Origin: Anaerolineae bacterium
GTDB taxonomy: Bacteria > Chloroflexota > Anaerolineae > S140-20
Length of the DNA: 64,000 bases
Reading direction: 5' to 3'
NCBI GenBank assembly: GCA_027021705.1
Contig: JALUTT010000085.1
Location: 21,526 to 85,525, forward strand
Position numbers: made by a program. Positions 40,101 through 43,100 of the stretch are shown here, piece by piece. Within the stretch, counting starts at the first letter, position 1. The number at the start of each line of letters is the position of its first letter.

Positions 40101-43100
40101 TCGCAAGGGGGCCGTCAGGCATCGCAGGCATCGAAGGAAAAGCCACCTCGCAAGACTGATTCCACCGGTCGCAACCAGCGCCAACAGCGTTGTGACTCCT
40201 TAGGCGAGTTGATCCGCGACGCTCAGGCCCTGCTCAAAGAGTACGAGGAGCTTCGCCTCCTGGCCGATAATCCCAAGGAAAAGCGTCGGCTGGAACGCCA
40301 GATCGCCGACCTGAAGGCCCAGATGAAGGATTACGAAGCGGAGTATCAAGAGCTACAGTGCCACGAGCTAGAGGGGAGGTAAGGCTTGATGACCGATCAT
40401 TTAGATTTAGAGAAAGAAGTGGAACACCTGCGCGAACGCCTGCGCATCCATCGGCGCACCCTGATGATCCTGGAAAAGCAGATCGCTCAGTTCACCGAGA
40501 TGGAAGCCCCCGTCCATAAGCTCAACCAGCGGGATCAGGTACGCGCCGAGATCCAGCGTCTGGAGAAGGAGCTTCGTGCTCTGGAGGCCCAGCAGGTCGT
40601 GGGTGTCAGCCCGCCGCCAGAACCAGAACCTTCACACCCCTCCATCCGCGTCTTCATCAGCGGCACCATCCGAGACCTCCGGGCCGAGCGAGAGGCCGTG
40701 GAACAGGCCCTCCGGCACCTCGATCTGGAAACCCTGCGGGCCGAGACCATCGGCTCCCAGTCGGCCAGCCCCTACGAGGTCAGCCTGATGCTGGCCCAGC
40801 AGTGCGACATCTACCTGGGCCTCTACGGCGGACGCTACGGTACCATCGTGCCCGGCGATGGCCGCTCCATCACCGAGATCGAGTATCAGACCGCCCGCAA
40901 CCAGGGCAAACCGATCCTCATCTACCGCAAGAAGGGGGTAGAGGTAGAGCCGGAACAGGAAGAGTTCCTACAGTTCGTCGGCGACCTGACCGGCGGTCAC
41001 ATCTGGCGGGAGTTCGGCCCCGATGACGTGCCCGACAACCTGATGGCCTGGGTGCAAGAGGACGTGCGGGCGGAGGTTCGGCGTCACCCCGAGTGGGCTC
41101 GGCGTCCCCCGGCCCGGGGCCGCGTCCTCCTGGCCTCCCTGGGCCGCTCGCCCGGGGCCGTCACCGGCCTCTACCATGCCCTGGTCCGCGACGGCAAGCC
41201 GGTCACCCGCGTCGTCACCTTCTCCTCCACCCATCGGGATGTGCGCGACGCGGCCGGCATCTGTAGGCAAGAGTTCCACTGGCTGGGGGTCCCCTACGCC
41301 AACCGTCTCATTGACGCCGAAGACATCGCCAGCGAGGACGATGCCCGCGAGTTCAAGTCCTGCTTCTACGGTCTGCTCCAGGAGAGCCTGGGGAGCGGCG
41401 CTGAGGTCCTGGTGGGCATCACCGGCGGGCGGACGGTGATGGGAGCGCTGATGGCCGTCGTCGTACAGACCACCGCCCCTGGACAGGCCGCCCTCTACCA
41501 CCTGGACGTGGACGACGACATCGAGGAAGACGGTCGCCTGCCCCGGCTGTGGGATTTCGAGGGCACGGAGCGGTGGCGGGAACTCCTGGACCCACCTCCG
41601 GAGAAGTGTCGGCTGGTCCGAGTGCCTTACGTCCGCTTCCCAAGCCAATCCTCCGCCGGCGGCCGATAGCCCCCCACCCCGAGGAGCCCCTATGCCCACG
41701 GTCGTCACGGTCCACCTCTCCACGGCAGATCCGCTCTTCTTCGACGAGACCTGGCCCCTGGAGACGCCCTTCCGGCAGCTCCTGGCCGCTGCTCACCCAT
41801 CCCCACCGCCGACCGGGGGGCAACACGACGCCTTCCTGCCCTACACCCTCTCCCCCCTCTGGCGGGTCCACCGCCGGCAGCGCCCCAACCCGGGGAGGGC
41901 AACCCCGACCGCCTACCGATGGCGGATCTGCCTCCTCGACGACGCCCTCGCCCCTCCCCTCCTGGCCGGCCTCCAGGCGATGGAGACGCTGGCGCTGCAG
42001 GGTGCTTCCCTCACCGTCGAGGAGGTGACCGTCGAGGCGCAGAGCTACCCCCAACTCGCCCGCCAGGCCCAGGAGCAGGTCGGTGGCCGGCCCGAGAGCG
42101 CCCGCCGCCTCTCCCTGGAGTTCATCACCCCCGTCGTCCTGCACCGGTCCGGGCTCCCCATGCCCCTGCCGGACCCCCTCCTCGTCTTCCGCCACTACCT
42201 CCTCTGCTGGGACACCTTCGCCCCGCCGGAGCTCCGGGTCAACGTCAACCTCCTCGACGCCGTCGCCTTCCACGTCGCCCTGACGGAGCACCGGCTGGAG
42301 ACCCGGCGCGTCCGGCTGGCGGGGAAGCCCCCCCGAGTCGGCTTCCTGGGGAACGCCACCTACACCGTGATGGCCTGGGAGAAGCTCGGCCCGGACTTCC
42401 TGGCGACGCTGCACGCCCTGGCCCGGTTCGGGGCCTTCTGCGGCACCGGTGAGATGACGGCCCAGGGTCTGGGGCAAACCCGCTACGGGGGGCCTGAGCC
42501 GCCCAGGAGGTCCCGTTGAGCACCCTATCCCTGCCCTCTGACTTCACCCTGGCCCACTACCGCCTCACCCTGGAGGCCCTGGAGCCCCTGCACCTCCCCC
42601 CTTTCAAGGGGAGTGCACTGCGGGGTGGGTTCGGCCACACCTTCAAACAGCTCGTCTGCTCCCAGCCCTGGCCCTGCGCCCAGCGCTGCCAACGGGGCAA
42701 CGCCTGTCCCTACGGCTACATCTTCGAGACCGCCCCGCCGGCGGGGAGCGAGGTGTTGCGCACCTTCCGCGAGGTGCCCCGCCCCTTCGTCATCGAGCCG
42801 CCCCAGGACCGGCGCACCTACATCCCCGCCGGCGATCGGCTCACCTTCGGGCTGACCCTGGTCGGCCAAGCCATCCCCTTTCTGCCCGACTTCGTCGTCG
42901 TCTTCCAAGAGCTGGGCCGCAGGGGGCTGGGCCGCCGGCGGGGGCAGTACCGCCTCCTGGCGGTGGACGCCGTCCTCCCCCACGAGGGGCGGGCCGAGCC
43001 GGTCTACCGGGAGGAGGATGGGGAGGTGCGGTCTGCGGACCTGCCCATCCGCATCCCGGCCATCGTCGCCCACGCCGCCCGGTTCTCTCCCGACCGGCTC

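Follow-up and report, generated by a model that had tools for sequence, protein, structure and literature searches.

Depletion of NAD+ under the control of cyclic oligoadenylate (cOA) is an established outcome of prokaryotic immune signalling, known from Cat1 and TIR-SAVED. Cat1, first found in a Chloroflexota bacterium, responds to cA4 with cleavage of NAD+ through filament assembly, and its description mentions that ring-nuclease activity was not detected (PMC12162218). A separate set of NADases is built on the DUF4062/NIR domain and comprises Swarozyc KpSwz, PsAvs2, Vulcan, Vesta, Evangelion and human TEP1, each of which is described as requiring an auxiliary or sensor region. The term CARF has no occurrence in the main text of the preprints on DUF4062, although their supplementary domain-architecture figures and tables may list a fusion. 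Neither TIR nor deoxyribosyltransferase occurs as a term in the 2025 update of the CRISPR classification or in the Domainator paper; "NADase" is absent from the former and appears once in the latter, for a Sir2-like protein, and "DUF40" is absent from the Domainator paper.

The window, a stretch of 64,000 nucleotides from an Anaerolineae bacterium, contains a gene whose product joins DUF4062 to CARF. The gene belongs to a type III-D locus, with the effector genes upstream of it and a pair of cas6 genes downstream. We favour, with a probability of roughly 0.6, the reading that this protein is a type III-D accessory effector: a cA4-activated NADase, analogous to Cat1 but outside the Cat1 family, that works within a scaffolded assembly. 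The features on which this reading draws are the following.

30473..32419, + strand: Cas10 (648 aa), cyclase palm with GGDD (PADLOC Cas10 E 2.1e-70; Pfam Cas10-Cmr2_palm2 E 1.4e-22; GGDD seen in the translation)
32403..34289, + strand: Csm3(Cas7)-Csx10(Cas5 III-D) fusion (PADLOC Cas5_IIId E 2.4e-68, Csm3 E 5.5e-34)
34286..34792, + strand: Csm2 / Cas11 small subunit (PADLOC Csm2 (CAS-III-D) E 4.6e-28)
34768..35634, + strand: Cas7, a Csm3-like RAMP (PADLOC Csm3 E 2e-53; Pfam RAMPs E 1.4e-27)
35627..36568, + strand: Cas7, a Csm3-like RAMP (PADLOC Csm3 E 2.1e-36)
36625..37155, + strand: Csx19-like region within ORF 35950-37155 (PADLOC Csx19 E 2e-9 on ORF residues 233-393)
37133..38146, + strand: Cas7 of the large Csm3 / Cas7_IIId type (PADLOC Csm3 E 4.5e-45)
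38242..38586, + strand: small conserved gene (114 aa) in a csx21-like position (tblastn with L001:8247-8579, 63% identity, E 2e-43)
38601..39902, + strand: 433-aa helical protein with C-terminal hairpin B (~39705-39899) and sub-threshold TPR matches (TPR_12 E 1e-4, below cut-off)
39906..40382, + strand: 158-aa two-hairpin adaptor, by hairpin identities; hairpin A (~39906-40106) and hairpin B (~40185-40379)
40389..40604, + strand: DUF4062-CARF protein, hairpin A (residues 1-72), candidate EAD-type adaptor (helices, 9-sequence alignment, library relatives)
40644..41084, + strand: DUF4062-CARF protein, putative DUF4062 / TIR-like NADase domain (residues ~86-232), E165 equivalent to the catalytic Glu (Pfam, KpSwz match, model, fold)
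41121..41633, + strand: DUF4062-CARF protein, CARF domain (residues ~245-415), Cas_NE0113 / Crn1-Csx14-like (Pfam, PADLOC, Sso2081 match, residue tallies)
41692..42519, + strand: Cas6 (Pfam CRISPR_Cas6 E 5.2e-14; PADLOC Cas6 E 2.3e-22)
42516..43505, + strand: Cas6, second copy (PADLOC Cas6 E 2.4e-108)

The GGDD retained in Cas10 supports the view that the locus is a signalling-competent type III-D system, and the DUF4062-CARF protein is the sole CARF match among the 15 ORFs (locus genes plus flanks) scanned with PADLOC. A CRISPR array was found neither in the window, by TRF and direct-repeat search, nor on its contig, C85, by a k-mer script; arrays are present on other contigs of this fragmented assembly. 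The small csx21-like protein is also encoded upstream in the related loci L001, L002, L005, L053, L061 and L064, and an ORF that overlaps its gene in another frame (38235-38600) matched no family in Pfam, PADLOC or a further family scan. A preliminary description had given the gene order as csx21, one variable gene, the fusion gene and cas6; in the window, a pair of genes and not a single one separates the csx21-like gene from the fusion gene. The product of the "variable gene" upstream is usually a partner of the TPR/HEAT-repeat or adaptor kind.

The ORF of the fusion protein runs from window position 40386 (TTG) or 40389 (ATG) to 41669 on the + strand (427 or 426 aa), so that the span first proposed for it, 40389..41669 with 426 aa, is exact in window coordinates. 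Read as contig coordinates, by subtraction of 21525, the same limits fall on an unrelated 415-aa ORF of the - strand, and this placement was rejected. The proposed three-part make-up, an N-terminal helical hairpin followed by DUF4062 and a C-terminal CARF domain, is upheld by Pfam, PADLOC and modelling. Pfam DUF4062 (PF13271) covers residues 88-170 with its full model 1-82, scoring 73.1 bits where the cut-off is 24.7 (E 2.2e-20); Cas_NE0113 (PF09623) covers residues 256-418, scoring 46.1 bits where the cut-off is 23 (E 6.8e-12); and PADLOC Csx1/CARF models cover residues 246-420 (best E 1.3e-18; Csx1/CARF5 range 1e-18 to 2e-17). At E <= 1e-3 the family numbers 44 proteins, of which 43 combine PF13271 with PF09623. 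It is rare, as 5.8 billion proteins yield 44 clusters of it at 90% identity, and all named sources of its members are Chloroflexota (Anaerolineae, Thermoflexales). In the homologues in L005 and L061, both reading frames are open. A new alignment of 43 sequences reproduces the residues previously listed as invariant (S127, E130, G151, S160, E165, G252, P255, G256, G346 and G347). An AlphaFold2 model of the full-length protein, made from the single sequence, reached a pLDDT of 46.3 and was used solely for the hairpin.

The enzymatic assignment rests on the DUF4062 domain. Searched against the PDB, a profile of 43 family members matched the KpSwz DUF4062 chain 10wc_A (E 2.4e-14) and TEP1 (11gz, E 4.6e-5). 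E165 aligns with position 84 of chain 10wc_A, where the residue is Ala; as the chain index plus 13 gives the KpSwz numbering (checked by R5 = R18 and D58 = D71; 10.64898/2026.05.01.722283), this Ala is E97A, the site of the catalytic E97 of KpSwz. A catalytic Glu proposed earlier from conservation is thereby aligned to its counterpart in a solved chain. E165 is Glu in 43/43 and the next residue is Tyr or Phe in 40/43, a pairing in keeping with the catalytic "E-Y" region reported in Evangelion. S127, E130, G151, S160, E165 and D225 are invariant in all 43 sequences, which reach down to 30% identity; among candidate positions for the N-terminal aromatic and Q/W/E motifs described for Evangelion, F89 is Phe in 38/43, W221 is Trp in 33/43 and D225 does not vary. 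Modelled on its own with an alignment (pLDDT 88.8, pTM 0.86), the domain was matched by VIA-align to MilB (Z 13.3), the TIR domains of SARM1 (12.4), IL-1RAcPb (12.4) and RPS4 (12.2), TIR-STING (12.1), NDT (11.9), Cat1 (10.9), ThsB (10.7) and TIR-SAVED (9.9), and by Foldseek to NDT, TIR-STING, DNPH1, BcmB and RPPT-TIR at E 4e-5 to 2e-4. With TIR, NDT and MilB as top fold matches of the domain alone, the gap left by the preliminary description, in which TIR and NDT structures were missing from the fold-search rows listed for the N-terminal half, is closed; Pfam TIR families had no match to the protein at E <= 0.01. Profile and model together support the assignment of the domain as a TIR-like NADase.

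Since MilB, a CMP N-glycosidase, heads these matches within 1 Z unit of the TIR domains, the fold alone does not fix the substrate. The domain might be activated by cOA and yet act on something other than NAD+, as a nucleotide N-glycosidase or deoxyribosyltransferase resembling MilB, BcmB, DNPH1 or NDT, or it might furnish a downstream partner with a second signal derived from ADP-ribose. Besides MilB, the top structural matches include NDTs and DNPH1, and signal production by such domains is raised as a possibility in the text of the NIR preprint. We nevertheless regard a different substrate as unlikely: the DUF4062 proteins assayed to date, KpSwz, TEP1, PsAvs2, Vulcan and Vesta, are all reported simply to hydrolyze NAD(P)+ or deplete NAD+, and the same family profile that finds KpSwz so strongly matches no NDT or MilB chain at E <= 1.

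The N-terminal hairpin bears on how the putative NADase would be deployed. Its two helices (residues 2-33 and 42-72) are modelled at pLDDT 77-97 even from the single sequence, and the 9-sequence alignment of hairpin A has a conserved QIAxHGGEMxAP turn. Recognition of a helical hairpin was correct as far as it went; as a description it was incomplete, since the element is shared with neighbouring genes, as a putative shuffled adaptor. The first 67 aa of the 158-aa protein are 82% identical to the N-terminus of the DUF4062-CARF protein, and its last 66 aa share 80% identity with the C-terminal end of the 433-aa protein; no Pfam family was found for it. Hairpin A recurs in the adjacent gene in 3/5 distinct hairpin-bearing loci, at 82% identity in the window, E 2e-16 in L001 and E 3e-20 in L002; none was seen in the L053/L054/L055 group, and L003 is too short for a verdict. 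The copies within a locus are clearly the closest pair in the window alone (80% vs <=49%); for L001 and L002 the within-locus pair ranks first or level with others, at 47-50%. The neighbour in L002 combines hairpin A with EAD7 (E 6.9e-23), that in L001 combines TPR, bDLD1 and hairpin A, and one family member (P0045) carries bDLD1 between its DUF4062 and CARF domains.

Searching a large protein library with a profile of hairpin A brought up 1099 proteins (E <= 1e-3); a word-index search of longer proteins, a method that does not reach so short a domain, gave 3, all close kin. From 150 listed of the 1099, 80 relatives, mostly longer ones, were chosen and scanned; 43/80 had a Pfam match at E <= 1e-5, and the domains recorded among the 80 were NACHT/NB-ARC/nSTAND (10), EAD7 (8), CHAT (3), bDLD1 (3), TIR_2, SIR2_2 and PNP_UDP_1 (2 each), and a deaminase, DUF4062, EAD9 and EAD1 (1 each). 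Hairpin B is found elsewhere in the same genome on two NB-ARC proteins, on a CHAT protein, on a TM-SH3 protein and on another two-hairpin adaptor. Scanned with Pfam at E <= 1, hairpins A and B gave weak coiled-coil families and, for hairpin B, EAD9 at E 0.78, with no EAD for hairpin A; compared by eye with the EAD7 alignment, hairpin B showed no resemblance. Taken by its sequence relationships, the hairpin at the N-terminus fits the pattern of an effector-associated adaptor. Given that it is shared with neighbours, and that the variable gene usually encodes a partner of the TPR/HEAT-repeat or adaptor kind, the effector is unlikely to work by itself. Family members of a shorter form, which have no hairpin, stand beside a conserved TPR protein instead: of 11 distinct loci with this form, 8 have a TPR-family gene directly upstream, and in 4 of the 8 its product is headed by TIR_2 or DUF4062.

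Such partners have precedent in type III-E, where TPR-CHAT docks on Cas7-11. Activation could depend mainly on protein-protein contact and not on cOA, with the TPR and adaptor partners docking the effector on the type III-D complex or on STAND sensors and the CARF domain tuning or terminating the response. The conserved partner genes of the short-form loci, and the hairpins common to the adaptors and to NB-ARC proteins elsewhere in the genome, would accord with this, as would KpSwz, whose auxiliary region is described as the route by which a protein trigger switches it on. Against it stand the strong conservation of the CARF ligand-binding residues, the GGDD kept in Cas10, and loci L063/L064, where the short form occurs with no TPR gene alongside; we judge activation by contact to be an unpromising account of the locus.

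The reading of a cA4-activated NADase requires that the CARF domain act as its sensor. The best solved match of the C-terminal half, again with the family profile, is Crn1/Sso2081 (7ygh, E 2.7e-12), for which residue roles are described (PMC10018336). The residues of Sso2081 that contact cA4 are kept: G9 and S11 correspond to G252 (43/43) and S254 (33/43; Ala in 10/43), D75 to D312 (40/43), G104 to G347 (43/43) and R105 to R348 (41/43). E17, which reads adenines A1/A3, is replaced by an invariant Gly (G260), and the regions of Y133 and R172 fall outside the alignment. The ring-nuclease residue K106 corresponds to T349, a position at which the 43 sequences have 39 Thr, 3 Ser, 1 Ala and no Lys. 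With the ligand-binding residues kept and the ring-nuclease lysine absent, the domain would serve mainly as a sensor, and likeness to a cA4-specific CARF makes cA4 the most likely ligand. Slow, self-limiting cleavage of cA4 is possible, as S254, the equivalent of the ring-nuclease Ser11, is retained.

The caveat attached to the preliminary description, that the CARF domain might be a ring nuclease or a regulator, is weakened by these tallies in its ring-nuclease part. In its full form, this alternative has the domain degrade cA4 to reset signalling, as an off-switch to which DUF4062 is secondary or regulatory. It draws on the match to Crn1/Sso2081, on the alignment of S254 with the catalytic-site Ser11, and on a match to Csx14 (NCBIfam TIGR03642, E 2e-9), which is counted in the Crn1 family (PMC12409355). 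The Csx14 score, however, lies far under its cut-off (37.8 vs 90.35 bits), S254 gives way to Ala in a part of the family, and Lys is never found at the position of Lys106, whereas the stand-alone CARF relatives in L078, L081 and L084 (229-241 aa) retain GGRK. A fused domain with an invariant catalytic Glu would be superfluous for a ring nuclease, and the adaptor would be left unexplained; we consider a chiefly degradative role improbable.

Many animal TIR domains are scaffolds. That DUF4062 is likewise non-catalytic here, an oligomerization or scaffold module alone, in keeping with the animal domains also brought up in the discussion of the NIR preprint, is very hard to credit when six residues are invariant in all 43 sequences down to 30% identity and E165 stands at the catalytic position.

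As we envisage the favoured pathway, binding of target RNA by the effector complex would lead Cas10, with its GGDD intact, to make a cyclic oligoadenylate, most likely cA4, which would be bound by the C-terminal Crn1/Csx14-like CARF of a dimer. Ligand binding may then rearrange or stack the N-terminal TIR-like DUF4062 domains into an active oligomer that would hydrolyze NAD+. Hairpin A would be a homotypic effector-associated adaptor that, in the window, would pair with its copy on the neighbouring 158-aa protein, whose second hairpin in turn matches the C-terminus of the 433-aa TPR-like protein. Because hairpins match along these three adjacent proteins, a scaffolded assembly of TPR protein, adaptor and effector is suggested. 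The earlier prediction of a cOA-activated NAD+ hydrolase thus gains computational support from the family, the catalytic Glu, the fold, the CARF residues and the GGDD; it was incomplete and not wrong.

A more speculative extension, which we would put forward only tentatively, is that the effector may be an output node shared by two immune branches, reached by cA4 from type III-D through its CARF domain, and by TPR and STAND-NTPase (NB-ARC) sensors through the hairpin and two-hairpin adaptors. On this view the sensors are the proteins that bear the matching hairpin B elsewhere in the genome, next to a CHAT protease with that same element. The hairpin-less clade would then be linked by the TPR protein, whose TIR or DUF4062 head might assemble together with the DUF4062 of the effector.

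If the favoured reading is true, the same output, cOA-activated depletion of NAD+, evolved a third time, from the DUF4062/NIR domain whose NADase activity was recognized only in 2026, and the family is the first small-molecule-gated member of that group, useful for asking how such domains switch on. The adaptor finding matters more than the NADase finding. A CRISPR accessory effector with such a hairpin, matching adaptors and TPR proteins next door, and matches on STAND NTPases elsewhere in the genome suggest that type III signalling effectors may be built into death-domain-like assemblies, and with the hairpin system, cross-talk between the adaptive and innate arms of prokaryotic immunity can be put directly to the test. 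Should the effector be a shared node, interchangeable adaptor modules would connect both CRISPR and NLR-like immunity to a single NADase.

One close counterpart among known systems is Cat1 (TIR-CARF; PDB 9MUD), likewise a type III accessory protein with an N-terminal NADase-type domain and a C-terminal CARF domain. Superposition of the DUF4062 model on 9mud_K gives Z 10.9, yet no Cat1 chain in the PDB was matched by the family profile at E <= 1. The earlier view of a Cat1 analogue drawn from a different NADase family is supported, as fold likeness with no detectable sequence relationship. The present protein differs further in its NADase, which is DUF4062, in its Cas_NE0113/Crn1-like CARF, and in the additional adaptor hairpin with TPR and adaptor partner genes. 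With the DUF4062/NIR NADases it has PF13271 and the aligned catalytic Glu of KpSwz in common; those proteins, however, sense phage proteins or belong to Avs/NLR-like, pAgo or vault assemblies, whereas here the sensor is CARF and the setting a CRISPR locus. TIR-SAVED and TSR1 (TIR-SAVED-Crn4) are comparable as cOA-activated TIR NADases of type III CRISPR/CBASS, as described in 10.64898/2026.09.16.751991, and the DUF4062 model matches TIR-SAVED 7qqk at Z 9.9, but theirs is a SAVED sensor for cA3 joined to a canonical TIR, with a separate Crn4 ring-nuclease domain in TSR1. Crn1 / Csx14 (Sso2081) falls in the same CARF subfamily, with G9/S11, D75 and G104-R105 in common; it differs in having K106 where the fusion has Thr and E17 where it has Gly, and in standing alone and not fused to an effector. 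Hairpins A and B, finally, fit no Pfam model of an EAD, and their host system is a CRISPR-Cas locus. Measured by the criteria for EAD1-10 and bDLD of NTP-dependent conflict systems, as outlined by Kaur et al. 2020 (PMC7159879), they are nevertheless EAD-like in being small and all-helical, devoid of enzymatic features, present as a second copy in an adjacent gene and in more copies elsewhere in the genome, and fused to effectors, STAND NTPases and other EADs. A link between CARF and EADs has precedent, since a figure legend of Altae-Tran et al. 2023 lists EAD7, as well as vWA-MoxR-VMAP, among CRISPR-linked CARF/SAVED proteins.

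The gene runs from position 40386 (TTG start) or 40389 (ATG start) to 41669 on the + strand and encodes 427 or 426 residues, the ATG form being the one in the preliminary description; taking the coordinates given there for contig positions was rejected, since subtraction of 21525 leads to an unrelated 415-aa ORF on the opposite strand. The domain assignments hold up: Pfam places DUF4062 at residues 88-170 (E 2.2e-20; 73.1 bits against a cut-off of 24.7) and Cas_NE0113 at residues 256-418 (E 6.8e-12; 46.1 bits against 23), PADLOC Csx1/CARF models cover residues 246-420 (best E 1.3e-18, with CARF5 at 1.6e-17 and CARF_m13 at 1.6e-9), and residues 2-72 form two long helices (pLDDT 77-97 in a model made without an alignment), here termed hairpin A. 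A large protein collection contains 44 relatives at E <= 1e-3, 43 of them with both Pfam domains, and the invariant residues originally named reappear in an alignment of 43 sequences. In 18 of those aligned, the hairpin-less ones, the N-terminal extension is at most 13 aa; in 25 it is at least 78 aa. The surrounding type III-D locus is arranged as follows.

Genes of the type III-D locus
30473-32419: Cas10, upstream of the target (PADLOC E 2.1e-70; GGDD present)
After Cas10, in order 5' of the target: Csm3-Csx10 fusion, Csm2, two Cas7, Csx19, large Cas7, then a small gene
38242-38586: this small conserved gene (csx21-like), after the large Cas7
38601-39902: 433-aa ORF
39906-40382: 158-aa ORF
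40386 or 40389-41669, + strand: target
Downstream of the target: two Cas6 genes

Among 15 ORFs scanned with PADLOC (locus genes and flanks), only the target gave a CARF match, and it carries the one DUF4062 domain of its genome. Neither the window nor its contig yielded a CRISPR array; the assembly, of 183 contigs, has large ones on different contigs, among them arrays of 162, 66, 63 and 47 repeats. Two further Cas_NE0113 (Csx14-like CARF) genes of about 295 aa, at C59:5036-5548 (-) and C158:621-1103 (-), have Pfam E-values of 1e-40 and 6e-30, much stronger than the target's, and may encode stand-alone ring nucleases or effectors that serve other CRISPR loci. The window also holds the following.

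Other features of the window
20246-20365: 8-nt unit (CGATAAGG type) repeated about 11 times, with a - strand ORF on either side
25846-25919 (about 4.5 kb upstream of cas10) and 43484-43529 (right after the second cas6): GTCCTCG-type heptanucleotide tandem repeats
26643-30245, - strand: 1200-aa ORF whose domains are Lamin-tail, OB-fold, DUF11 and Exo_endo_phos (E 5e-36); its product is probably a nuclease/phosphatase that is secreted or exposed at the surface
25917-30266, + strand: overlapping 1449-aa ORF, probably spurious, with no family match
30210-30257 (just upstream of cas10) and 55810-55885: G-rich GGGGCAA-type heptanucleotide tandem repeats
59675-59896: 102-nt tandem repeat, 2.2 copies, 93% matches

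The best-supported reading of the target is that of a cA4-gated NADase. Run against all PDB chain sequences, the 43-sequence family profile matched the KpSwz DUF4062 chain 10wc_A (E 2.4e-14, profile positions 89-226) and human TEP1 (11gz; E 4.6e-5). The KpSwz structure is reported as an E97A construct with first residue 15, in which R18 and D71 are named (10.64898/2026.05.01.722283); R and D stand at indices 5 and 58 of 10wc_A in the printed alignment, so that adding 13 to an index gives the native number, and E97A corresponds to the Ala at index 84. E165 of the S-I-T-E-I-E-Y motif, listed as invariant in the preliminary description, falls in this same column. It is Glu in 43/43 sequences and is followed by Tyr or Phe in 40, consistent with the "catalytic E-Y region" described for Evangelion; E163 is Glu in 39/43.

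Residues 78-244 were modeled from the family alignment (pLDDT 88.8, pTM 0.86). In a structural search of representatives the model's top match was MilB (Z 13.3, rmsd 3.0, 134 aligned), then the TIR structures of SARM1 and IL-1RAcPb (both 12.4), RPS4 (12.2) and TIR-STING (12.1), then NDT (11.9) and, lower, Cat1 (10.9), ThsB (10.7) and TIR-SAVED (9.9). By Foldseek, NDT, TIR-STING, DNPH1, BcmB and RPPT-TIR matched with E-values between 4e-5 and 2e-4. These TIR and NDT matches close a gap acknowledged in the preliminary description, which had neither fold for the N-terminal half. Because rows less than 1 Z unit apart are treated as tied, the fold is no guide between a TIR-type NADase and an N-glycosidase. 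The preference for NAD+ as substrate comes from sequence: the DUF4062 enzymes that the domain matches are reported to hydrolyze NAD(P)+ or deplete NAD+.

The same profile matched the ring nuclease Crn1/Sso2081 (7ygh) at E 2.7e-12, which allows residues of reported function (PMC10018336) to be followed into the family.

Sso2081 residues and roles, target counterparts, and conservation among 43 sequences
G9 (scissile-phosphate cradle): G252, 43/43
S11 (scissile-phosphate cradle): S254, Ser 33/43, Ala 10/43
E17 (reads adenines A1/A3): G260, Gly 43/43
D75 (major cA4 binder): D312, 40/43
G104 (phosphate contact): G347, 43/43
R105 (essential for cA4 binding): R348, 41/43
K106 (needed for cleavage): T349, Thr 39, Ser 3, Ala 1, Lys 0 of 43

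The pattern is that of a putative cA4-type site whose ring-nuclease lysine would have been lost as the domain became a fused sensor. Three stand-alone CARF relatives of 229-241 aa from the metagenome scan retain GGRK; a fourth relative, of 342 aa at locus L072, has Thr, as in the target's family. The target might still cleave cA4 slowly through S254. The L072 protein (L072:3397-4422) joins an N-terminal GGRT CARF to an unannotated helical C-terminal half, and may be another effector built on the same Thr-type CARF subtype.

Between the csx21-like gene and the target (38601-40382) lie two ORFs made of shuffled helical hairpins: the 433-aa ORF, whose Pfam TPR matches are sub-threshold, ends with a second type, hairpin B, and the 158-aa ORF consists of A plus B. 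The first 67 residues of the latter share 82% identity with the target N-terminus, and its last 66 share 80% with the C-terminal end of the 433-aa ORF, values that suggest that the locus has recently undergone duplication or gene conversion. Elsewhere in the genome, hairpin B occurs at C40:18433-18978, C120:44231-44398, C144:59735-59908, C92:87727-87894 and C36:8851-9027 (loci L039 and L042-L046). Its carriers, which look like a genome-wide adaptor network, include a CHAT protein (495 aa, hairpin at the C-terminus; C120), a TM + SH3 protein, two NB-ARC STAND NTPases with the hairpin at the N-terminus (426 aa and a 1049-aa frame), and a 197-aa adaptor (C40) that adds an A-like hairpin.

Related loci came from a genome collection (8/36 spanning both domains) and a metagenome collection (80/97 kept). 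Hairpin A also occurs next door in 3/5 distinct hairpin-bearing loci: the window, L001 (C-terminus of a 518-aa TPR + bDLD1 protein, E 2e-16) and L002 (N-terminal half of a 156-aa protein that continues as EAD7, with Pfam E 6.9e-23). It was not detected in neighboring genes of the L053/54/55 group, and the fifth locus, L003, comprises only 3.4 kb. Only in the window do the copies of one locus clearly stand out as each other's nearest match (80% vs <=49%); in L001 and L002 the pair is best or tied. Among family members, P0004 has hairpin B in place of A, and P0045 has bDLD1 between DUF4062 and CARF. A 9-sequence profile of hairpin A, with its conserved turn QIAxHGGEMxAP, matched 1099 of 1.84 billion representative proteins at E <= 1e-3, of which 50 reached <= 1e-10; the hairpin lies at either end of these proteins and is repeated in some. 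We scanned with Pfam 80 of the 150 relatives listed, mostly longer ones and with target-family members removed; 43 had a match at E <= 1e-5 and 37 had none. Fusion partners comprised 10 NACHT/NB-ARC/nSTAND NTPases, 3 CHAT, 2 TIR_2, 2 SIR2_2, 2 PNP_UDP_1, 1 deaminase, 1 DUF4062 and TPR/HEAT/LRR-Roc-COR repeats, and adaptor domains comprised 8 EAD7, 1 EAD9, 1 EAD1 and 3 bDLD1. Kaur et al. (PMC7159879) describe effector-associated domains as small helical modules that have a second copy in the gene next to them and occur as fusions with effectors and core NTPases. Hairpin A shares these defining properties and, judged by sequence, behaves like an adaptor of this type; neither A nor B matched the Pfam EAD models. 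Longer forms within the target's family (486-493 aa; L053/L054/L055, P0009, P0016, P0019, P0026, P0027) have extra sequence inserted behind hairpin A, with a strand motif like G-D-G-N-I-V-G-N-N-N; this insert may act as a second element of assembly. In the C120 CHAT protein and in the adaptor at C40, the hairpins are followed by similar motifs, of the I-G-D type.

Hairpin-less (short-form) proteins were examined at eleven distinct loci (L004/60, L005, L006, L007, L008, L056/57, L059, L061/62, L063/64, L065, L066), L058 being excluded as too short. In 8/11 the immediate upstream neighbor is a member of a single TPR family (mutual BLAST 1e-5 to 1e-104), with a TIR_2 head in L004 and L006, a DUF4062 head bearing an S-V-T-E-x-E motif in L056 and L061, and no recognized head in L005, L007, L059 and L065. 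The exceptions are L063/64, with no such gene, L008, with a HEAT-repeat protein, and L066, where a TIR_2-AAA protein lies further upstream. The "one variable gene" noted earlier beside the target is therefore usually a repeat-protein partner, which in some loci supplies a second NADase-type domain. At L007:12562-18695, 3' of the Cas6 gene, a CHAT-SIR2 (843 aa) and nSTAND1-WD40 (1201 aa) pair forms a STAND-type conflict system adjoining the type III-D genes.

In the proposed mechanism, Cas10 would be switched on by binding of target RNA, cA4 would be bound by a CARF dimer, and the DUF4062 domains would be released or stacked into an active oligomer, so that NAD+ falls. Activation by oligomerization is assumed by analogy with that reported for KpSwz, TEP1 (10.64898/2026.05.01.722283) and Cat1 (PMC12162218). 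A scaffold would come from the hairpin and the TPR partners; it might nucleate larger assemblies, tether the effector to another complex, or provide a second input.

Cat1, first found in a Chloroflexota bacterium, is reported to carry its NADase domain at the N-terminus and its CARF at the C-terminus, and to respond to cA4, with ring-nuclease activity not detected (PMC12162218). The target, with its predicted N-terminal NADase-type domain and C-terminal CARF, resembles it functionally. Membership in the Cat1 family was rejected: the profile search of the PDB returned no Cat1 chain at E <= 1, and no Pfam TIR family matched the target, which by sequence is a member of DUF4062 and of the Cas_NE0113/Crn1-like CARF group. 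The main texts of four preprints on DUF4062/NIR NADases each contain the term "CARF" 0 times. The effector is a predictable recombination of known parts, unreported in the literature searched. A legend in Altae-Tran et al. (2023) that links EAD7 / vWA-MoxR-VMAP with CRISPR-linked CARF/SAVED proteins provides a precedent for adaptor coupling of CARF proteins; the adaptor wiring is more surprising than the effector itself.
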